Of a stretch of 64,000 nucleotides of DNA, positions 18 through 9,213 are shown one piece after another (the first letter of the stretch is position 1; each line of letters begins with the position of its first letter). The stretch is from Pelagibacteraceae bacterium. GTDB lineage: Bacteria > Pseudomonadota > Alphaproteobacteria > Pelagibacterales > Pelagibacteraceae. The DNA is taken from NCBI GenBank assembly GCA_009693705.1, contig SHWS01000001.1, positions 4,067-68,066 on the forward strand, given 5' to 3'. Under the pieces are notes generated by a model. It worked only from the letters and a program-made list of their open reading frames with translations. It searched no databases and was not told where the DNA came from. The translations under genes and the position numbers were made by a program.

Positions 18-515
18 TTATGAATTAATTTTTTTTAATTCTTCTTTAGTCTCATCTAAATTTTTTTGAAAAAGACCATCTAATTTTGAAGAACCTATTG
101 ATGTTGAAATAATTTTTTTAGCAGCATCTATAGCAATTTTGATTGAAGCATCTCTAATATCTTTAATAGCCGCTTCTTTCATTTGAATAATTTTATTTTT
201 TACAAGATTTTTTTTTATTTCTGATGACTTATGAAATTTATCATTTAATTCAATTATTAATTGGTCGCTATCTTTTTTTGCTTGCTCAATAATATCGTTG
301 CTAATTCTTTCAGCACCGTCTAATTTTTTTTGTGCGTTATCAAGTAGCATTTTTGCTTCATTCCTTAATCTCTCGCTTTCATCAATTTCATTTTTTAAGT
401 CAGAAATTAACTTATTCAATAAATCATTAATTTTTAGTGGTATCTTTAAATATATTAATAACCCAAAAAAGATTACAAATGAAACTGCTACCCAAAACGT
501 TGCATTAATTGCCAT
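18..515 (-). CDS. atpF: F0F1 ATP synthase subunit b
   Basis: N-terminal TM helix (ATFWVAVSFVIFFGLL) followed by a charged coiled coil; last gene of the atpI-B-E-b'-b cluster. Start refined to the ATG at 515 (MAINATFW); ORF track starts at 551. Confidence 0.92.
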   Translation of the reverse strand: MAINATFWVAVSFVIFFGLLIYLKIPLKINDLLNKLISDLKNEIDESERLRNEAKMLLDNAQKKLDGAERISNDIIEQAKKDSDQLIIELNDKFHKSSEIKKNLVKNKIIQMKEAAIKDIRDASIKIAIDAAKKIISTSIGSSKLDGLFQKNLDETKEELKKINS

Positions 516-1095
516 AATATTTATCTCTACCCCTTCTTGATAGATCGTCAACTATCGCGGATACACTGCTATTATTAACTTCAGTGCCTGTTAGTTTTTG
601 AATTAATTGAAAAGATATTTCACTAGCAATTATATTTATCTTTTCTGGAGCACTTTCTATTAAATTTTCGATTTCTTTTTCAACTATTTTAATTTCTTCA
701 TCTATCTGACTCTCCAATAGTTCTTTTTTGATATTTATATCTTTTAATGCTTTTTCTCTTGCTTGATTAAGGATTGTTTTAGAATCAAGTTTGCTTTTGG
801 AGATAATCTCATTGTATACCAATAGTTTTGCTTCACTATCTTCTTTTTGTTTCTCTGCTGCCTCAATATTTTCTAATATTTTAGATTTTCGTTTCTCTAA
901 ATTTGTGTTTATTTTTGGCAATATAAGTTTTGACAAAACTCCATATAATAAACCAAATGTAAGTGTTAACCAAAATATTTGTGAAATCCAAAATTCAGTA
1001 TTTAATTGAGGCATTCCGCTTTTTTCGACTGCAAAAGCTTCCTTCATTAGGAAGCTAAAAAATATTAACTGAAAAAATATTTTTTTAATCATCAA
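505..1095 (-). CDS. atpF2: F0F1 ATP synthase subunit b'
   Basis: MPQL...SQIFWL motif typical of alphaproteobacterial b'; lies between atpE and atpF. Confidence 0.92.
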   Translation of the reverse strand: MMIKKIFFQLIFFSFLMKEAFAVEKSGMPQLNTEFWISQIFWLTLTFGLLYGVLSKLILPKINTNLEKRKSKILENIEAAEKQKEDSEAKLLVYNEIISKSKLDSKTILNQAREKALKDINIKKELLESQIDEEIKIVEKEIENLIESAPEKINIIASEISFQLIQKLTGTEVNNSSVSAIVDDLSRRGRDKYYGN

Positions 1096-1097
1096 AT

Positions 1098-1325
1098 CTA
1101 AAATGCAAATAGAATGATTAATGCAACTACTAATCCAAATAGTCCTGTAGCTTCAGCGAGTGCAAATCCTAAAAGTAAATTAGGAAATTGTTTTTGTGCT
1201 GCTGAGGGATTTCTCATTGCTCCTGACAAATAATTTCCAAAAATTATTCCAATTCCAACTCCAGCACCAGCTAAAGCTATTGCCGCAAGACCAGCTCCTA
1301 TCATTTTTGCTGCTTCTAATTCCAT
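1098..1325 (-). CDS. atpE: F0F1 ATP synthase subunit c
   Basis: 75 aa, GAGLAAIALAGAGVGIG glycine motif, RNP loop, proton-binding Glu in FALAEA. Confidence 0.98.
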   Translation of the reverse strand: MELEAAKMIGAGLAAIALAGAGVGIGIIFGNYLSGAMRNPSAAQKQFPNLLLGFALAEATGLFGLVVALIILFAF

Positions 1326-1330
1326 TATAT

Positions 1331-1337
1331 CCTCCTT
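1331..1337 (-). promoter_or_regulatory. Strong Shine-Dalgarno (AAGGAGG) of atpE
   Basis: Plus strand cctcctt at 1331-1337, ending 5 nt before the atpE ATG; most genes in the window lack such a site. Confidence 0.8.
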
Positions 1338-1345
1338 ATGTTAAT

Positions 1346-2080
1346 TTAATGGTGTAAGTTTAATGCATCATTTAAATAGATGCAGGTTAAGATTGCAAAA
1401 ACATATGCCTGAAGAAAAGCAACTAAGATCTCCAAGCCAGTTAAAGCAACCGAAAAACTCAGTGGCAACCATCCACCGACTATTCCAAGACTTATTACAA
1501 AGCCTCCGAAAACTTTCATCATGGTATGACCTGCCATCATATTAGCAAATAATCTAACTGATAAACTTATAGGTCGACTTAAGTATGAAATAATTTCAAT
1601 AACGATTATTAATGGCAAAAGGATAATTGGTACTCCGCTAGGTACAAATAATTTTAGATATCCAACTCCATGTTTAATAAAACCAATTATCGTTACACCA
1701 ATAAAAATAAAAGCCGCTAATACAAATGTTACTATTATGTGACTAGTAACTGTAAATGCATAGGGTATCATACCGAACATATTGCAAAATAGCACAAACA
1801 TAAAAAGTGAAAAAATTAAAGAAAAATAAGGTTTTGCTTTTGATCCTGCGGTATCGTTAATCATTTTTGAAACAAACGTGTAGCTTAGTTCAGCTAAAAG
1901 TTGAACTTTATTTGGTAATAATGAATTTTTTTTTGAACCGAAGAAAAAAATTATTAAAATTGCCATTGAACTTATAACCATAAATAAACTTGCATTTGTA
2001 AAAGAAATATCAAAAGTGCCTAATTTGATTTCTGGTCCAATTCGATAAACTTCGAATTGTGTCATTGGATTTGCAGCCAT
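1346..2080 (-). CDS. atpB: F0F1 ATP synthase subunit a
   Basis: SRPISLSVRLFANM with the conserved Arg; LQAYVF motif. Confidence 0.98.
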   Translation of the reverse strand: MAANPMTQFEVYRIGPEIKLGTFDISFTNASLFMVISSMAILIIFFFGSKKNSLLPNKVQLLAELSYTFVSKMINDTAGSKAKPYFSLIFSLFMFVLFCNMFGMIPYAFTVTSHIIVTFVLAAFIFIGVTIIGFIKHGVGYLKLFVPSGVPIILLPLIIVIEIISYLSRPISLSVRLFANMMAGHTMMKVFGGFVISLGIVGGWLPLSFSVALTGLEILVAFLQAYVFAILTCIYLNDALNLHH

Positions 2081-2089
2081 AAATTTTAT

Positions 2090-2365
2090 CTACCTTTGCA
2101 TATTTTTTGCAGATCTAATTACATTCATTATTCCAGTAACCACACCTAAGAAAAAAAATATTAATATTAACCAAGGTTTAGTACCAAAGGTCTTGTCTAA
2201 AATAAACCCAATAATTGTCCCAACTACAACCGCCGAAACTAGTTCAGTGCTCAGTTTAAAAGCAGCACCAATTGATGAAGCATTCTCTGTTTCGTTGTAT
2301 AAATTTCTTTTAGTAAGTTTATTTTTTGCAATCTCTAGGCGATTTTTGAACTGATCTTTTGGCAT
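2090..2365 (-). CDS. atpI: ATP synthase protein I (AtpZ/AtpI family)
   Basis: ELVSAVVVGTIIGFILD...TKPW pattern with two TM helices; directly upstream of atpB. Confidence 0.88.
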   Translation of the reverse strand: MPKDQFKNRLEIAKNKLTKRNLYNETENASSIGAAFKLSTELVSAVVVGTIIGFILDKTFGTKPWLILIFFFLGVVTGIMNVIRSAKNMQR

Positions 2366-2374
2366 TTGTATAGT

Positions 2375-4948
2375 TTAAGCAACCATACTCTCTGCTTTTT
2401 GTAAATCAACTGCAACAAGCTGACTAATTCCTTTTTCTGGCATAGTTACCCCGTAAAGCCTATTCATTTTAGACATGGTTAATGCATGATGAGTTACAAT
2501 GATAAATTTTGTATTAGTAATTTTTATTAGCTCTTCAAGTAAGCCGCAAAATCTTGTTACATTAGCATCATCAAGTGGAGCATCAACTTCATCTAATACA
2601 CATATTGGCGATGGGTTAGTAAGAAAAACTGCAAAAATTAAAGATAGGGCAGTAAGCGCTTGTTCTCCACCAGACAGTAATGTTATCGATTGAAGTCTTT
2701 TTCCAGGAGGACTAACTAGCATCTCCAAACCGGCTTCTAGTGGGTCTTCAGAGTCTACCAATTCTAGTTTAGCAGTACCTCCATTAAATAATTTTGTGTA
2801 AACCTCATTAAATTTTCTATTAACTTTTTCAAAAGAGTCAATTAATCTTTGTCTTCCCTTTTGGTTAAGTTCACCGATGCTATCTTTTAGTTTGGCTATT
2901 GCAGATACTAAATCAGATCTATCTTGTTCCATTTTTTTAATCTCAATTTCAAATTTACTTGTTTCTTCATCTGCTCTTAAATTAACTGAACCTAATTTTT
3001 CTCGCTCTTGCTTCTTTTTATCTAATAAATCTTCTTGATCAACAGCATTAGGTAGATCACGTACATTATAAAGATTAGAGTTTTCTAAAACATTTTGTTC
3101 AGATAAGTCTAATTCAGAATTTATTCTATCAAGTAAGTCTTTTTTACGATTTTTTAATCCATCAATTGTTGCACCAGAACTAGCTTTTCTCTCTCTAATT
3201 TGAATAGATTGTTCTTGAATTTGATTGAGTTGACTTCTTAAGATTTCAATTTTTTTGTCAGTTTCAAAGATGATTGCTTTATTTTCAATTTTTTCTTTTT
3301 CAGAAACTCTCAAACTTTCAGATATTTGTCCTTTTCTTTCAGCTTGTAAAGTTGGTTGATTGTCTAATTTTTTAAATTGAGAGACTAATTTAGTTTTTCT
3401 ATCTGTTAATTCAACGACCATTTTTTCAGAATTTGATAATAAATTTATCCAACTTTCAATTTCTATTTTGATAGTTTTTATTCTTTGATTTCGTTTTATT
3501 GACTCATTTTTTATTGATTGATTTTTACTATAGGCATCAGCATATTTTTCTTGAAGAAGTTTTATATTATGAGATTTCTCGTTAACACTTAATAGTTCAT
3601 CTCTACTTTTTTCATTTTTTAAATCATTCAAATAATTATCAAGTTCTATGATACATCTGTCTAACAAAGTACATGCTTGATTAATTTCATTAGCATCAAT
3701 TAACTCTTTTGCTAGATTAATTGTGTTTTTTACATTCTTGATTGGTCCAATACTTATATTTAGTGCTCCATTAGCAATATTTGCCACAACATCGGCAACT
3801 AATTTTTGCTCATCCTGCAAAATTCTTTTAGCTTCATATAAACTCTCATTAGACAACTTTTCTGTTTCAAAATATTTAGAATCTATTTCGATAAGATCAC
3901 TTTTTTCTTCTTTGAGTCTTTTTTCATTAGAGTTTGCATCAATAATTATGCCTTTTTCTCTATTAATATCCTCATTTAATGTTTGGATTGAATTATTTAT
4001 GCTTTCAATTTCGTCTTGGATTCTTGTGTTTTCCTCATCTAAACTTTGAAGTTCTAAGTTGAGTCTTTGAATTTTCGATAAAATTTCAATATTTTTTTCT
4101 CTTAGTGGAGATGCTTTTTCTATTTCAGATTTAATTAATTTTTCAGCTTCAAGTATTTGAGTATTAAATCTATTAACTTCACCTTCTGCTTCATTGTTAA
4201 TTTGATTTTCAATTCTTATTTCATTATCAATTTCTATTAACTTTAAATAATAGAGACCTGCTTCAATTTTTTTAATTTCTTGGGAAATTAACTTATATTT
4301 TGTTGCCTCCTCAGCTTGTTTTTGAAGATTGGCCAGTTGCTTTTCTTGTTGTCGTCTTAATTCGTCTGCTCTTTTTAAATTATTTTCAGCAGCTCCTAGT
4401 CTTAATTCCGCTTCATGTCTTCTAACGTGAAGTCCTGAAATTCCCGCAGCCTCTTCTAAAATTGCTCTTCTATCAGTTGGCTTTGCGGTTACTAAAGCAC
4501 CAATACGTCCTTGGCTAATCATGGAAGGTGAGTGAGCGCCTGTTGATAAATCTGCAAAAAACATTTGTGCATCTCTTGCTCTCACTTCTTTTTCATTTAT
4601 ATAAAACTTTGAACCTTTATCTTTTTCAATTTTTCTTCTTACATGAATTTCATGCAGGTCACGATATTGAATCGGCCCTTCTTTATTTTGATTTGCAACT
4701 GTTACTGAAACTTCTGCTATATTTTTAGATGGTTTATTAGACGTTCCAGAAAATATTACATCTTCCATCCCAGAGCCACGCATGCTCTTTGCTGATGTTT
4801 CTCCCATTACCCATCTTAAAGATTCTACAATATTTGATTTACCACAACCATTAGGACCAACTATACCGGTTAAACCATCTTCAATTAAGAAATTTGTTTT
4901 TTCAGCAAAAGACTTAAATCCATTAAGTTGGATTTTTTTAAACTCCAT
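2375..4948 (-). CDS. smc: Chromosome segregation protein SMC (short, no recognisable hinge)
   Basis: GFKSF, Walker A GPNGCGKSN, signature LSGGE, Walker B/D-loop VLDEVDAPLD, long heptad-rich arms; only 857 aa. Confidence 0.95.
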   Translation of the reverse strand: MEFKKIQLNGFKSFAEKTNFLIEDGLTGIVGPNGCGKSNIVESLRWVMGETSAKSMRGSGMEDVIFSGTSNKPSKNIAEVSVTVANQNKEGPIQYRDLHEIHVRRKIEKDKGSKFYINEKEVRARDAQMFFADLSTGAHSPSMISQGRIGALVTAKPTDRRAILEEAAGISGLHVRRHEAELRLGAAENNLKRADELRRQQEKQLANLQKQAEEATKYKLISQEIKKIEAGLYYLKLIEIDNEIRIENQINNEAEGEVNRFNTQILEAEKLIKSEIEKASPLREKNIEILSKIQRLNLELQSLDEENTRIQDEIESINNSIQTLNEDINREKGIIIDANSNEKRLKEEKSDLIEIDSKYFETEKLSNESLYEAKRILQDEQKLVADVVANIANGALNISIGPIKNVKNTINLAKELIDANEINQACTLLDRCIIELDNYLNDLKNEKSRDELLSVNEKSHNIKLLQEKYADAYSKNQSIKNESIKRNQRIKTIKIEIESWINLLSNSEKMVVELTDRKTKLVSQFKKLDNQPTLQAERKGQISESLRVSEKEKIENKAIIFETDKKIEILRSQLNQIQEQSIQIRERKASSGATIDGLKNRKKDLLDRINSELDLSEQNVLENSNLYNVRDLPNAVDQEDLLDKKKQEREKLGSVNLRADEETSKFEIEIKKMEQDRSDLVSAIAKLKDSIGELNQKGRQRLIDSFEKVNRKFNEVYTKLFNGGTAKLELVDSEDPLEAGLEMLVSPPGKRLQSITLLSGGEQALTALSLIFAVFLTNPSPICVLDEVDAPLDDANVTRFCGLLEELIKITNTKFIIVTHHALTMSKMNRLYGVTMPEKGISQLVAVDLQKAESMVA

Positions 4949-4956
4949 GCGTTAAC

Positions 4957-5544
4957 TTATATCAGTTTTTCAAGAGCTTTTTTTAAATTCTTATAATCTA
5001 GGGTTTTTTCAAACTTTTCATTATTAATTATTATCGTGGGAGTAGCATTTACCTTAAAATTTTTAACACCATCGATTCGATCATTTAATATAAAATCCTC
5101 AATTTCACTGTTATTAATGCATTTTTCAAAATCTACCTCAAAACCCTCGCTATTTACAAAGTCCTGAAGATTTTTATTTGCTTCTTCAATGGTACTTCCT
5201 TTAATCCATTTTTGTTGGTTAGCATAAAGACTCATTAGAATGTTTGAATTACCATCATTTTTACATTGTGAAATTTTTGCAGCATTTAATGCCGTTATAT
5301 CTAAAGGAAAGTGCCTGAATTCGATTTTTGCTAAACCCGTATCAAGATATTCTTTTTTAAGTTCCGGATAAACATTCTTATGAAAGTTTGCACAATGACT
5401 GCAAGTTAAAGACTCGTATGCAAGAATAGTTATTTTGGCATCTTCATTTCCTACAAAAATTCTTTTTATCAAAGAAGATGTTTCTGCTCCAGCATTTGAA
5501 AATAAGCCTAAAATAATAATTATTAATAATAAAGTTTTTTTCAT
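4957..5544 (-). CDS. DsbA-family thiol:disulfide oxidoreductase
   Basis: Signal peptide, CSHC active site, FRHFPLD and cis-Pro ATPT motifs. Confidence 0.88.
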   Translation of the reverse strand: MKKTLLLIIIILGLFSNAGAETSSLIKRIFVGNEDAKITILAYESLTCSHCANFHKNVYPELKKEYLDTGLAKIEFRHFPLDITALNAAKISQCKNDGNSNILMSLYANQQKWIKGSTIEEANKNLQDFVNSEGFEVDFEKCINNSEIEDFILNDRIDGVKNFKVNATPTIIINNEKFEKTLDYKNLKKALEKLI

Positions 5545-6029
5545 CTTTTTTTAAAAACTTTTGCAAGTTCCATTAGTGATTTTTTTATTTTTTTATTTTT
5601 AACATTTTTTACTTTATCCTGATATTTATTAATTGTCACATTTTTATTAGATATGAGATTTTTTGATAAAAATTTTTCTTCATCATCAAAACTTATAAGC
5701 TTTAGTTTTTCAACAACAGAATAACCAAAAAAACTATTCATTTTATCTAAAACATTTTTTTTTGAATATTCCAAATCTATTTCATGCCCTCTTTGAACCA
5801 TTACTACTAATGTGCTCACGCCAAATCTATTAGAATTTTTAAATGTTTTTGGGTAACAGAATTTAAATAGCTCTGTTCCAACAATATACTTCCAATTATT
5901 GATTGTTTCAGAATATATGTGACCTTTTTTGTTTATAATTTTTTTAATGTTTTTAGGCAAAGTGTCTTTAAAAGATCTTAAACCTTGAATGGTGACATTT
6001 CTCTGCTTAATATTATTTTTAAAATGCAT
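5541..6029 (-). CDS. DUF721 / DciA-family protein (putative helicase loader)
   Basis: W..IVG.E motif and basic helical profile; occupies the usual alphaproteobacterial slot DUF721-DsbA-smc opposite mutY. Confidence 0.65.
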   Translation of the reverse strand: MHFKNNIKQRNVTIQGLRSFKDTLPKNIKKIINKKGHIYSETINNWKYIVGTELFKFCYPKTFKNSNRFGVSTLVVMVQRGHEIDLEYSKKNVLDKMNSFFGYSVVEKLKLISFDDEEKFLSKNLISNKNVTINKYQDKVKNVKNKKIKKSLMELAKVFKKR

Positions 6030-7010
6030 ATAAAAGATGTAACAATATCAAAAAAAATTCTCGATTGGTACGATTTTAATAAAAGAAAATTACCCTGGCG
6101 AAAAAAAACATCTTTTAAACAAAAGCAATATTTCACTTTAGTAAGTGAATTTATGCTACAGCAAACACAAGTCACAACAGTAGTTCCATATTTTAATAGA
6201 TTTATTAAAGATATTCCAACTTTAGAAAAACTTTCAAATACAAGTAACAGAAAACTCATAAAACTTTGGGAGGGACTGGGCTACTATTCAAGAGTAAGAA
6301 ATTTAAAAAAAGCTGCAAAAATTATTAAAAAAAAATTCAATAATAAATTACCTGATAATTTTTTTGAATTAAAATCTCTTCCAGGCATAGGTGATTATAC
6401 AGCAAATGCAATCTTGGCAATTGTCTTTAATATACCCGTAATTCCATTAGATGGAAATGTAGAGAGAGTTTTAAAAAGATACTTATATTTAAAAAAAAAA
6501 AACGAAATAGTGAAAGAGAGTCTTAATCAAAAAAAAAAAATATTTACCAAGTCAAATAGACCTGGTGATTACGCCCAGGCTCTAATGGAATTAGGAGCAA
6601 CAGTTTGTAAACCTTTAAATCCACTGTGTAATCAATGTCCAATTTTTAAAAATTGTAAATCATTTATTAGAAAAGACTTTAGCATGAGAAAAGCAATTAA
6701 AAGAAATATAAATAAATATTTCTTAATAAAAGTTTATAAACATAATAATAATTATTTACTTATTAAGAATACTGAATTTAATTTTCTAAAGAATTTAAAT
6801 ATTTTTCCAATGGATGAAATAGTTAATCAAAAAAATTTTAATTCGAATTTAAATTTTAAAATGTCTAATATGAATATGAATATTCAGTTTATATTCAAAA
6901 AATTCAATAAAAAGATTCCTTTTTCATATTGGATCGATCCTCAAAATATAAAAAAATATATTTTGCCTACTTTTACTAAAAAAATTATTAATTTTCTAGA
7001 ACACTATTAA
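6024..7010 (+). CDS. mutY: A/G-specific adenine glycosylase MutY
   Basis: VSEFMLQQTQV, WEGLGYYSR, HhH LPGIGDYTA, DGNVERV, Fe-S motif C-X6-C-X2-C-X5-C. Start refined to the ATG at 6024; ORF track starts at 5985. Confidence 0.95.
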   Translation: MHIKDVTISKKILDWYDFNKRKLPWRKKTSFKQKQYFTLVSEFMLQQTQVTTVVPYFNRFIKDIPTLEKLSNTSNRKLIKLWEGLGYYSRVRNLKKAAKIIKKKFNNKLPDNFFELKSLPGIGDYTANAILAIVFNIPVIPLDGNVERVLKRYLYLKKKNEIVKESLNQKKKIFTKSNRPGDYAQALMELGATVCKPLNPLCNQCPIFKNCKSFIRKDFSMRKAIKRNINKYFLIKVYKHNNNYLLIKNTEFNFLKNLNIFPMDEIVNQKNFNSNLNFKMSNMNMNIQFIFKKFNKKIPFSYWIDPQNIKKYILPTFTKKIINFLEHY

Positions 7011-8146
7011 TGAAAAAAATTGCAATTATTGGAGCAGGGATATCGGGTTTATTTTTTGCAAATTTATTTAAAGGAAATCCGAATTACCAAATAACAATTT
7101 ATGAAAAAAACAATTCATTAGATCTTGATGAGGGATATGGGATTCAATTGTCTGTTAATAGTATAAAACTTTTAAATAAAATTGGATTTGAAAATCTTAA
7201 CTCACAAGACAAATTTAATCCTAACAAGATTGATTTTTATTCGGTCAATCAAAATATGAAAATATGCGATTTAAATATTTCAGATTTTAATACCATAGAT
7301 TGTAAATATACTACTCTAAAAAGATCAATTTTGATTAATTATTTAAAAGAAAATTTAAATACTGAAATAATTAAATATGATCATAATATTTCACAAATAA
7401 ATTATACTAAGAATTTAATTAAATTAGTCTTTCAAAATAATATTTCAAGGGAATGTGATTTTTTAATTATATCGGACGGCATATTTTCAAAAGCCAAAAG
7501 ATTAATTACAAATAATCTTGTCAAACCATCATTTAATGGATCAGTTGCCATAAGAGGTGTAATTAATAAAAAGGATTTAACTGGTATAAATTTAGACAAC
7601 ATTTCCTTATTTTTAGGAAAAAATTTTCACAATGTTATTTATCCAGTGAATAAGACGGAAGATTTTAATTATATTGCAATTTTAAAACACTATTTAAAAT
7701 TTCAGGAACCTAAAAACTATGAATTTTTTAATGACGACTTTTCTATCAATAAATTTTTAGGAGGGTTACCCTACAATACCAAAATAAAAAAAATTAAATA
7801 TTATCCTGTTTTTATTAGTAAAAATTTTTATGAACCAGTTAAAAACAATCTTTTCTTAATAGGAGATGCTTTTTTTGCTGTTCCACCATCATTTGCTCAA
7901 GGTGCTTCCCAATCAATTGAAGGTGCTTTTGAATTATATGAAAGTATCAAAAATAATTCTTATAGTAATTTTCATATTAATAGAGTTAAAAAATTGAAAA
8001 TGATTAAAAATAGATCAAAAATAAATCAATTTGCTTTTCATTTATCAAGTCCGATTATGATATCCATGAGAAACTTTTTTTTAAAAATTCTAACAAAAAA
8101 TAAAAAATTTTTAGAAAATTATTTAGGAAAAGTTTATAGAAATTAA
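7010..8146 (+). CDS. Class A FAD-dependent monooxygenase (salicylate/aromatic hydroxylase-like); substrate unknown
   Basis: GAGISG Rossmann motif, SDG motif, IGDA...P..AQGA motif. Confidence 0.8.
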
Positions 8147-9213
8147 TTTTTTGAAATCAATCTTTGTCTTAAATTATCAATGGGTAAAAAATTTCCATTT
8201 AAATTATAGTGCCAATAAGTCCATCCGTTACAACTTTCAGCTCCCAAAATTATTGCTGCTACTTTATGAATAGATCCTTTTGCTTGATCATGCTTAATGC
8301 TACCATCTGCCATAATTTTTGCACTTATTTTCTTTTTATTATCAAAAATAGAAGTTCCTGGTTTAATTATTCCAAGCTCAACCAATGATCCAAATGGTAT
8401 TCTTGGTTTAGATCTATTATTTTCTAATGTGTCCAGATAATCATCTTCGATTGGTTTAGTAAATTTCAATCTTTGATCTGCTGCCTTAACGTAACTGATC
8501 TCTTTTTCAATTCCATAATAATTTCTTCCTAATTTTTTAGCAACAGCCGCTGTTGTTCCTGAACCTAAAAAGGGATCTAAAACAAAATCGTTTTTATTAG
8601 TGCTTGCCAATAATATTCTATGTAATAAAGATTCTGGCTTTTGAGTTGAGTGTATTTTTTTACCATTTTTTTTTAGTCTTTCTTGTCCACTGCAAATAGG
8701 TAAATTCCAGTTAGATCTCATTTGTAAATCGTCATTTAAACATTTTAAAGATTGATAGTTAAAAGTATATTTTGATTTGTCGGATTTTGAAGCCCAAATT
8801 AGGGTTTCATGGGCATTAGTAAAACGCCTACCTCTAAAATTTGGCATTGGATTATTTTTATTCCAAATAACATCATTTAAAATCCAAAATCCCAAATTTT
8901 GAATAGTCGTACCTACTCGAAAAATGTTATGATAGCTTCCTATAACCCATATAGCACCATCTTTTTTTAAAATTCTCTTACATTCACTTAACCACGAATA
9001 AGTAAATTCATCATATTGTTGAAAACTTTTAAATTGATCCCATTTATCGTTTACTGCATTTACTTTTGATCTATCTGGTCTGGTTAATTCTCCTTTTAAT
9101 TGTAAATTGTATGGAGGGTCTGCAAAAACTAAATCAAATGTATCGCTCGGAATTTTTTTTAATTCTTCCAGACTGTCGCCATTAATAATCTTATTTTTTA
9201 AATCACTTGTCAT
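8143..9213 (-). CDS. ccrM: Cell-cycle-regulated GANTC adenine methyltransferase CcrM
   Basis: [23 protein letters not shown] (beta-class N6-MTase) plus the CcrM C-terminal domain (RIPFGSLVE...GSIH...CNGWTYW); next to rnhB. Confidence 0.95.

Follow-up and report, generated by a model that had tools for sequence, protein, structure and literature searches.

In Candidatus Pelagibacter (SAR11), which ranks among the most abundant bacteria of the ocean, smc encodes a natural short-armed Smc that has no hinge and lacks roughly one quarter of each arm. This design is fixed across the order Pelagibacterales, where the protein is under strong purifying selection. As a whole, the evidence is best explained by an orthologous Smc that lacks a hinge and probably still works as Smc-ScpAB, without a dedicated dimerisation domain.

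Within the window, the 64,000-nucleotide stretch of DNA analysed here, smc occupies positions 2375 to 4948 of the reverse strand and, in agreement with the first-pass annotation, translates into 857 residues, with the stop codon at 2375-2377. The protein scores 651.7 bits with the Smc equivalog model TIGR02168, above the cut-off of 567.35; the match falls into two stretches, of which the first aligns residues 3-392 with model positions 2-389. Pfam SMC_N matches residues 4-842. The head is complete. Its N-terminal half (residues 1-170; 4439-4948, reverse strand), delimited by motif search, invariant columns and the strands and helices of the AF2 model, carries the Walker A motif GPNGCGKS at residue 31 (G31-S38), R57 and the Q-loop SQG at 145 (Q146). 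The neck and C-terminal half (residues 635-857; 2378-3046, reverse strand), delimited by motif search, invariant columns and the AF2 model, carry the signature LSGGE at 758, the Walker B motif VLDEVD at 784 (784-789), the D-loop DAPLD at 789 and the H-loop THH at 819 (H820). The motif search thus recovered every head motif previously described as intact, and all are invariant in an alignment with 37 relatives. Foldseek matched the head to Smc heads such as 5H68 (TM 0.85-0.87, normalised to target).

Structurally, SAR11 Smc follows the ordinary alphaproteobacterial pattern in its head, its neck, a joint-like interruption and the two thirds of each arm strand nearest the head. The N-terminal arm (residues 171-393; 3770-4438, reverse strand) is a single AF2 helix whose counterpart in canonical alphaproteobacterial Smc, by alignment, is positions 171 to ~393. 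It ends at a short break in the NGALNISIGP region (residues 394-400; 3749-3769, reverse strand), modelled as non-helical with pLDDT below 50, which faces a second break of pLDDT below 50 on the C strand (residues 445-447; 3608-3616, reverse strand). Between the breaks, in the hinge's place, lies a tip hairpin (residues 401-444; 3617-3748, reverse strand) with AF2 secondary structure of helix 401-418, turn 419-421 and helix 422-444; the tip region does not align with the canonical hinge. The C-terminal arm (residues 448-612; 3113-3607, reverse strand), defined by alignment and by AF2 helices 448-529 and 531-612, rejoins canonical Smc homology at about residue 459 and includes W500, which is invariant class-wide. 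Close to the head, the C strand is then interrupted (residues 613-634; 3047-3112, reverse strand) by a modelled loop, which we take to lie at the position of the Smc joint in solved structures. The best Foldseek match here is 5XEI, which comprises the Smc head, coiled coil and joint, and the top matches are all of this kind.

Compared with the canonical protein, ~360 positions are missing: the distal ~110 of the N strand, the ~130 of the hinge and the distal ~120 of the C strand. Their place is taken by a helical hairpin, which has 65 residues in this protein and about 6 in the 798-aa forms found in the same genus. AF2 models of the 857-aa and 798-aa forms (mean pLDDT 81 and 83) both show arms made of helices and a tip folded as a hairpin, with the centre free of strands. 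The continuous arm measures ~220-230 residues, and the arms are about 225-255 residues long against a canonical ~331, these lengths depending on the chosen head and tip boundaries and being uncertain by about 10-15 residues. Relative to canonical alphaproteobacterial Smc, each arm is shorter by ~77-106 residues, close to the ~100 first estimated. The small helical apex proposed for the centre of the protein likewise finds a counterpart in the predicted hairpin. The region assigned to it, residues 385-450 (nucleotides 3600-3800), was correctly placed, the peptide quoted at the time being residues 390-436; its description as non-coiled does not hold, since AF2 predicts a helical hairpin with two short breaks.

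The absence of the hinge is borne out by Pfam, by a class-specific profile and by the structural model. PF06470 (SMC_hinge) gives no match to the 857-aa Smc even at E ≤ 10. Taken alone, this model is an insufficient test: it misses genuine alphaproteobacterial hinges, giving a canonical alphaproteobacterial Smc of 1151 aa just 17.2 bits, under its cut-off, and finding no match in the Smc of genome G197, although that protein has a hinge. Because PF06470 detects the hinges of this class so poorly, a hinge HMM was built from alphaproteobacterial SMCs and used with positive controls, which scored 195-216 bits for the SMCs used to build it and 128-195 bits for independent canonical proteins, with one outlier at 43. 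The SAR11 857-aa Smc scores -0.6 bits, or about 0. The same profile matches none of 201 Pelagibacterales genomes and 100 of 151 genomes of the class. Consistent with this, the AF2 model contains no beta strand across residues 171-724. The GX6GX3GG motif is also absent, as first reported, but it has no diagnostic value within Alphaproteobacteria, because canonical 1150-aa alphaproteobacterial SMCs lack it as well. Since both Pfam SMC_hinge and this motif miss genuine hinges, hinge loss in the class has to be called from class-specific profiles, which corrects annotation practice.

A short Smc could also arise from an assembly deletion, from pseudogene decay or from a hinge encoded as a separate protein, and disrupted frames do occur in three surveyed genomes: G163 and G355 (both with a frameshift in a poly-A run) and G085 (truncated). 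Such explanations are almost certainly wrong, being refuted by the genome survey, by dN/dS and by a six-frame hinge search. The gene is carried by 192 of 201 near-complete Pelagibacterales genomes. Among the genomes listed, which span 10 genera and many of which are single-contig or closed, frames measure 799-883 aa, none is longer than 883, and all share the same architecture. The first-pass annotation had named full-length close relatives as the sign of an assembly deletion; relatives close and distant within the order are all short, and the length is therefore not such a deletion. The dN/dS ratio stays at or below 0.14 throughout the protein, and the catalytic motifs are all invariant. A hinge in trans is ruled out by the six-frame search of the genome with the class-specific HMM (best E 0.77), and PF06470 likewise found no hinge-like ORF in the genome.

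Genomic neighborhood analysis supports the assignment of the gene as the orthologue at the smc locus, as originally proposed, rather than a paralogue. Directly upstream lies a DsbA-like thioredoxin gene (4957-5544, reverse strand; Pfam Thioredoxin_4, E = 5.7e-34), which also adjoins canonical and other short alphaproteobacterial smc genes. It is followed by dciA (DUF721; 5541-6029, reverse strand; Pfam DciA, E = 2.2e-12), also a neighbour of smc in L037, a canonical alphaproteobacterium, and by a divergent mutY-like glycosylase gene (5985-7010, forward strand; Pfam HhH-GPD and HHH), which L037 and L035 likewise have at the locus. The order mutY, dciA, dsbA-like, smc is common to the window, L037, L035 and L033. 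In addition to this conserved synteny and the equivalog score, a phmmer search with both head halves as queries found no second SMC head in the genome, its sole hit being this smc, which rules out a paralogue. Identity to canonical alphaproteobacterial Smc is 39-49% and falls in two blocks, residues 2 to ~390 and ~465 to 857; the closest relatives, by nearest 50%-identity clusters, are 1150-aa alphaproteobacterial SMCs. In the tree, families f1 and f2 each form a strong clade, as do the canonical alphaproteobacterial SMCs. Its deep branching order, which bears on one loss versus several, has support of 54/12, with attraction between long branches.

The partner genes are retained. The scpA (246 aa) and scpB (233 aa) genes, which the first-pass annotation had left to be looked for, are adjacent and overlapping in an operon on contig C2 (profile scores of 51.5 bits for ScpA and 172.3 bits for ScpB), and ParB is encoded in the genome. 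Most likely, SAR11 Smc still acts as Smc-ScpAB, its dimer held by the kleisin, the heads and arm packing. The ATPase would organise the chromosome after loading at ParB/parS; ScpA would connect one protomer's neck with its partner's cap, engagement of the heads driven by ATP would help to hold the two together, and the arms would pack side by side down to their tips, with the dedicated dimerisation domain absent. Published work on Smc is consistent with such an arrangement: association between the arms makes a considerable contribution to dimerisation, and Smc(EQ) can be targeted to parS without its hinge (PMC4785775); arm contacts add to dimerisation in hinge-less Smc (PMC5526789); and the kind of dimerisation domain used is 'surprisingly uncritical' (PMC5344682). 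Natural arm lengths cluster at 238, 341 and 515 residues, with a period of ~99 (PMC5344682). The SAR11 arm would lie near the 238-residue mode, about one super-helical period (~99 residues) below the canonical ~331, a length that would preserve the phase between head and tip. Shorter Smc arms raise head engagement (PMC5344682) and, by analogy with this effect in B. subtilis, could offset the loss of the hinge. That loss is not neutral in the sole system tested, B. subtilis, since Smc(ΔH) is expressed there, yet stays off the chromosome unless ATP hydrolysis is blocked (PMC4785775).

Conservation declines from head to tip. Mean pairwise identity within the genus is 89-95% for the heads, 74-77% for the arms and 44% for the tip, with dN/dS values of 0-0.05, 0.03-0.07 and 0.06-0.14, respectively. 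The tip is therefore the least conserved and fastest-evolving part of Smc, and between genera of the order its sequences do not align. It also varies in length. Within the genus, the 857-aa and 798-aa forms differ by matched indels of 29 and 30 residues, one per strand, located by pairwise alignment with L024 and L027: residues 381-409 (3722-3808, reverse strand) on the N strand and their partner, residues 433-462 (3563-3652, reverse strand), on the C strand. In the 798-aa form, AF2 predicts a bare hairpin in which a 3-residue turn (390-392) joins two continuous helices.

These data bear on whether the hairpin has taken over the role of the hinge. It could be a dedicated, metal-free dimerisation module, two tips forming a four-helix bundle that replaces the hinge and closes a tripartite ring. 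Large hydrophobic residues are enriched in the tip helices of the 857-aa forms relative to the arms (z 1.6-2.2, the top 5-12% of arm windows), an enrichment seen in 14 of 14 genus sequences tested despite their low identity. The paired breaks in the model would set the tip off like a separate unit, and the tip is under purifying selection. In B. subtilis, moreover, the Rad50 zinc hook can stand in for the hinge (PMC5344682; see also PMC6969161), so a small tip module can suffice. The module reading is nevertheless somewhat doubtful. In addition to the low identity of the tip, its failure to align between genera and a length variation that takes protein totals from 798 to 880 aa, the 798-aa forms, with their 3-residue turn, show no hydrophobic enrichment (z 0.2-1.4). 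A zinc hook is ruled out, as the CxxC motif is absent from SAR11 Smc and from every relative examined; of the cysteines at the tip, C426 is not conserved and C432 alone recurs in the genus. The same features leave the original proposal that the apex forms a different dimerisation interface unestablished. A dedicated dimerisation module at the tip is thus possible but weakly supported.

Nor do the arms carry the mark of a new interface. At equal head identity, arm identity is 0.31-0.36 in hinge-less and 0.36-0.40 in canonical proteins; the ratios lie slightly below canonical, and as hinge-less arms are not more conserved relative to their heads, there is no sequence sign of an extra arm interface. 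This lack of extra conservation, together with the absence of both a hinge and a conserved tip, would also fit arms that never join distally. The protein would then be an open two-armed clamp of heads and kleisin, holding DNA only in the kleisin/head compartment, or would have assumed a new role such as RecN-like repair tethering. A smc match is missing in 46 of 151 genomes of the class, and many reduced alphaproteobacterial genomes have lost smc, which makes a lower dependence on full Smc plausible in streamlined cells. An open clamp or a new role is decidedly unlikely, however. Arm length is tightly kept (the 798-, 857- and 863-aa classes) and the indels are matched on both strands, which would be unexpected if the arms were mere spacers; selection on the arms is strong (dN/dS about 0.05), and ScpAB and ParB are kept. 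The equivalog model and the synteny oppose a change of family. A Smc-ScpAB complex held together by kleisin, heads and packed arms is the reading preferred here.

Canonical Smc-ScpAB of the B. subtilis/Caulobacter type (TIGR02168) resembles the SAR11 system in its orthologous locus, full ABC head, neck, joint-like interruption and antiparallel coiled coil, in the presence of ScpA, ScpB and ParB in the genome and in passing the equivalog cut-off. Unlike the canonical protein, SAR11 Smc is hinge-less, ~295 residues shorter and capped by a helical hairpin at the end of the arm. Each of these departures has a counterpart among engineered constructs. B. subtilis Smc(ΔH) likewise joins the arm helices directly, without a hinge (PMC4785775); functional Mini-Smc has an arm cut by about one super-helical period (PMC5344682); and the Smc(Zh) chimera also ends its arm in a non-hinge tip, which is a zinc hook that SAR11 Smc lacks (PMC5344682). 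Unlike these constructs, SAR11 Smc is natural, lineage-wide and selected, and it combines hinge loss with arm shortening; whereas Smc(ΔH) is mislocalised in B. subtilis, the hinge-less form is evidently sufficient in SAR11. Rad50/SbcC shares the ABC head, the antiparallel coiled coil and a small apex in place of a globular hinge, but SAR11 Smc lacks the CxxC zinc hook and has the kleisin ScpA, not a nuclease, as its partner. The Rad50 models NF002572 and NF041035 score about 35 bits, below their cut-offs of 1087 and 1000, and PF13558 (SbcC_Walker_B) has no match in the genome. Other short alphaproteobacterial SMCs (G197/L035, 864 aa; P0185, 874 aa) are of similar length and occupy the same locus, in a streamlined marine genome of 1.4 Mb. 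Unlike SAR11, they keep the hinge (73 and 95 bits with a profile from which these two were left out) and shorten only the arms, the opposite route to a small Smc.

Hinge-less SMCs were first published in 2025, for another clade, an oceanic cluster from Tara metagenomes (PMC12153180). Proteins of this cluster consist of a head and coiled coil with no hinge and no CXXC, are abundant in the ocean and occur without a regular smc in the same genome; the cluster is placed at the base of Actinobacteria and annotated Actinomycetes, and SAR11/Pelagibacter is unmentioned (PMC12153180). Compared with the cluster by its published description only, SAR11 Smc shares the head and coiled coil, the lack of hinge and CXXC, the single smc and the ocean abundance, and differs in its nearest relatives, a difference that speaks against its belonging to that monophyletic cluster. 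As these are alphaproteobacterial SMCs, we infer from sequence affinity that the SAR11 hinge was probably lost independently of the loss in the Tara cluster. The literature search found no paper describing a hinge-less Smc in SAR11.

The contribution of the SMC hinge is debated, being seen as dimerisation only, as a DNA-binding site or as a DNA gate. To our knowledge, its role has so far been probed by engineered deletions and chimeras in B. subtilis. Pelagibacterales, which dominate ecologically, offer a natural experiment on the scale of a whole order: evolution has removed the hinge together with one super-helical period of arm, and strong selection maintains the remaining components (head, neck, joint, ScpAB and ParB). 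Quite improbably, the SAR11 chromosome might even be handled by a Smc-ScpAB motor without any distal arm closure, the arm of the 798-aa form being just a helix-turn-helix. If so, Smc would need neither a topologically closed inter-arm compartment nor a DNA gate at the hinge in order to function, and the least that makes an SMC machine work would be head/kleisin clamping with arm zipping. With two natural tip lengths within one genus, in small proteins amenable to testing, SAR11 Smc is a natural test of the purpose of the hinge.

The smc gene of the window (2375-4948, minus strand) is a single open frame of 857 codons, and the Pfam SMC_N model spans residues 4 to 842 of its product. The protein scores 651.7 bits against TIGR02168, the NCBIfam equivalog model for bacterial Smc (cut-off 567.35), in two stretches, the first of which pairs residues 3 to 392 with model positions 2 to 389 of 1181. 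Motif search recovered all six head motifs that the first-pass annotation had described as intact, Walker A GPNGCGKS (residue 31), the Q-loop (145), LSGGE (758), VLDEVD (784), DAPLD (789) and THH (819), each of which forms invariant alignment columns among relatives. The best database matches are chromosome segregation proteins SMC of Candidatus Pelagibacter (Pelagibacterales, Alphaproteobacteria), mostly 857 aa among the full-length ones listed; loci that carry names come from single-cell genomes of the Pelagibacteraceae and from Ca. Pelagibacter sp. Uisw_136. Genomic context supports orthology: the string mutY(+)/dciA(-)/dsbA-like(-)/smc(-) recurs at the locus of a canonical 1154-aa smc (L037), at that of a short smc from another order (L035) and in the sister family (L033). 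A phmmer search with either head half as query found no second SMC head in the window's genome. The gene is, as first proposed, the orthologue at the canonical smc locus and not a paralogue.

On the minus strand, window 18-6029 holds an uninterrupted run of co-oriented genes: dciA, dsbA-like, smc, an atpI-like gene of 91 aa, atpB, atpE and two atpF, with a 4-bp dciA/dsbA overlap and gaps of 8-9 bp around smc. Judging from this arrangement, the run from dciA to atpF could be one transcription unit that ties smc to genes for the F0 part of ATP synthase. A few genes away from smc and mutY, a 356-aa ORF (8143-9213, minus strand) carries a DPPY motif (FADPPYNL), typical for N6-adenine or N4-cytosine DNA methyltransferases, and probably encodes a CcrM-like cell-cycle methylase.

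The Pfam hinge model (SMC_hinge, PF06470) gave no match to the window protein even at E≤10, although this model is a poor detector within Alphaproteobacteria. On a canonical alphaproteobacterial Smc of 1151 aa its score stops at 17.2 bits, under its gathering cut-off of 22.5, and in genome searches the Caulobacter control was detected at E≤1 only, not at E≤0.01. The missing GX6GX3GG motif, originally cited as a sign of hinge loss, is indeed absent from the window protein, but canonical alphaproteobacterial SMCs lack it as well (canonical loci L036, L037 and L039). Domain-based annotation thus under-calls hinges class-wide, and a class-specific profile was therefore built from 1150-aa alphaproteobacterial SMCs. 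This profile scores 195-216 bits on its own source proteins, 128-195 bits on independent canonical SMCs (with a single outlier at 43), and ∼0 bits on the window protein and on every Pelagibacterales SMC examined. Its best E-value across six frames of the window's 1.29-Mb genome is 0.77, so the hinge is not encoded separately. As a genome-level query, the alphaproteobacterial hinge profile (A4) matched none of 201 genomes of the order Pelagibacterales (11 genera); in the positive control, a class-wide sample of 151 genomes, it matched 100.

Structural modeling agrees with the loss of the hinge. In a joint alignment, residues 1 to 393 and 459 to 857 align with canonical alphaproteobacterial Smc, while ∼360 canonical columns are reduced to 65 residues, with ∼110 of the distal N strand, 130 of the hinge and 120 of the distal C strand gone. 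The central peptide quoted in the first-pass annotation corresponds to residues 390 to 436, and its nucleotide range was correct. The AlphaFold2 model (37-row alignment, mean pLDDT 81) consists of an N-strand arm helix (residues 171 to 393), a low-confidence break (394 to 400), a tip hairpin (helix 401 to 418, turn 419 to 421, helix 422 to 444), a C-strand break (445 to 447), two C-strand arm helices (448 to 529 and 531 to 612), and a loop at the Smc joint position (613 to 634) followed by the C-terminal head. Because paired residue numbers across the strands sum to ∼840, the two breaks face each other; the arm is therefore capped by a small hairpin made of its last 44 residues. There are no beta strands between residues 171 and 724 of the model, consistent with the small helical apex originally predicted. 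In the PDB, Foldseek ranks structures of the Smc head, coiled coil and joint highest (5XEI, 5XNS, 5H68), together with Smc5/6 and condensin.

Arm length has also changed. With the head taken to end near residue 170 and to resume ∼176 residues before the C terminus (estimated boundaries, ±∼10-15 residues), mean strand length in the 857-aa form is ∼254 residues for the whole arm and ∼228 to the paired breaks, and ∼225 in the 798-aa form. Unlike canonical alphaproteobacterial Smc, which combines a hinge with ∼331-residue strands, SAR11 Smc thus has strands of ∼225-254 residues and no hinge. Natural prokaryotic arms show length modes of 238, 341 and 515 residues and a functional period of ∼99 residues (Burmann et al., PMC5344682), which places the SAR11 arm about one period below the canonical one on these estimated boundaries, in line with the earlier estimate of ∼100 aa per arm.

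The short architecture is fixed in the order. Among the 201 Pelagibacterales genomes surveyed, each at least 90% complete, 192 contain an smc gene, and the open frames listed span 799-883 aa (classes ∼799, 805-812, 857-871, 860-868 and 882-883). Elsewhere in the class, SMC-bearing genomes have frames of ∼1150-1200 aa, and these SMCs match the window protein as two blocks (residues 2 to ∼390 and ∼465 to 857). The short length is not an assembly deletion: relatives are short across the order and many of the surveyed genomes are closed. In a library of 1.8 billion proteins clustered at 50% identity, only three of the best 150 clusters are short (858, 864 and 874 aa). Going by the Smc tree, the order's two families may have lost the hinge once or repeatedly.

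Within one genus, 857-aa and 798-aa forms occur side by side (L024, L027, L049), and the shorter form is common there. By pairwise alignment, the 798-aa forms are without residues 381 to 409 and 433 to 462 (window 3722-3808 and 3563-3652), a paired 29/30-residue loss from both strands, and are modeled (mean pLDDT 83) as a bare hairpin (helix 171 to 389, turn 390 to 392, helix 393 to 553). The Smc tree does not group these forms into a single clade, implying recurrent change or recombination. In other genera (809, 858-864 and 880 aa) and in the sister family (863-864 aa), the tips look helical, are rich in K/E/N and cannot be aligned with one another.

Disrupted genes were also observed. Two of the closed Pelagibacter genomes have smc broken into 657-aa and 226-aa frames (L128, G163:C1; L129, G355:C1), with the frameshift inside a poly-A run of ∼9-10 A (near locus positions 2540-2560 and 2405-2420, respectively). 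Sequencing error in the homopolymer, a tract prone to slippage and recent inactivation are all candidate causes. In G085, a third genome, the frame is truncated at 735 aa.

Smc has become small in a different way in G197, a 1.41-Mb closed genome of another alphaproteobacterial order (L035:6699-9290, minus strand; same mutY/dsbA-like/smc locus), and in protein P0185 (874 aa). Whereas SAR11 Smc has lost the hinge, these 864-874-aa proteins keep it (73 and 95 bits with a hinge profile built without them; WRWDG motif, residues 371 to 491) on arms of only ∼190-200 residues.

Nineteen 857-aa orthologues from the genus share a mean pairwise identity of 0.89 in the N head, 0.95 in the C head, 0.77 in the N arm, 0.74 in the C arm and 0.44 in the tip. 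Comparison of the closest pairs gives dN/dS values of 0-0.05 for the heads, 0.03-0.07 for the arms and 0.06-0.14 for the tip; these uniformly low values reflect purifying selection on a gene functional throughout, with the tip its least constrained part. When matched for head divergence, hinge-less proteins show no extra arm conservation over canonical ones. The tip helices of 857-aa forms have a moderate excess of large hydrophobic residues (z 1.6-2.2), a hydrophobic cap that weakly suggests a dedicated dimerization module with persistent tip-tip contact; against this, the tip is variable and sometimes minimal, and the tips of 798-aa forms have no such enrichment. Cys432 (window 3653-3655) lies eleven residues past the tip turn in the pattern LDxC, and most members of the genus have it, whichever length form they carry, despite the poorly conserved tip. 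It is not part of a CxxC motif, which is absent from the window protein and all relatives examined.

The canonical partners are present. Overlapping genes arranged as an operon encode ScpA (246 aa, 51.5 bits with Pfam) and ScpB (233 aa, 172 bits), flanked by an upstream ORF and a membrane ORF resembling tatC; the genome also has a ParB gene. An SbcC/MksB-type Walker B domain was not found in this genome (PF13558, SbcC_Walker_B, which matched 14 of 14 control genomes), and phmmer with the Smc head halves returned no further SMC/RecN-like ATPase above noise; on these searches, SbcC and RecN-type proteins may be missing from the genome.

Failing the hinge test, the protein is not a canonical Smc, and a Rad50/SbcC identity is ruled out by the absence of a hook and by model scores far below cut-off. 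An abundant oceanic cluster of 'hinge-less' SMCs without CXXC, described in 2025, was assigned by its authors to Actinobacteria with no mention of SAR11 (PMC12153180), and a full-text literature search combining Pelagibacter or SAR11 with SMC and hinge found nothing on SAR11 hinge loss. The SAR11 protein is accordingly classed as a new hinge-less SMC, probably derived independently: its nearest 50%-identity clusters are alphaproteobacterial Smc.

The hinge-less protein most likely still acts as a Smc-ScpAB ATPase, in which the kleisin bridge, head engagement driven by ATP and packing of the arms side by side would hold the dimer together. Work in B. subtilis lends plausibility to this reading: association of the coiled coils makes a considerable contribution to Smc dimerization, and Smc(EQ) can be targeted to parS without the hinge (PMC4785775); arm contacts contribute to dimerization of hinge-less Smc (PMC5526789); the hinge is replaceable by a Rad50 zinc hook, and head engagement and ATPase activity both rise when the arm is shortened (PMC5344682). 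Against it, the engineered hinge deletion Smc(deltaH), with full-length arms, stays off the chromosome unless hydrolysis is blocked (PMC4785775). Speculatively, the natural form may be workable precisely because the hinge and one arm period were lost together.
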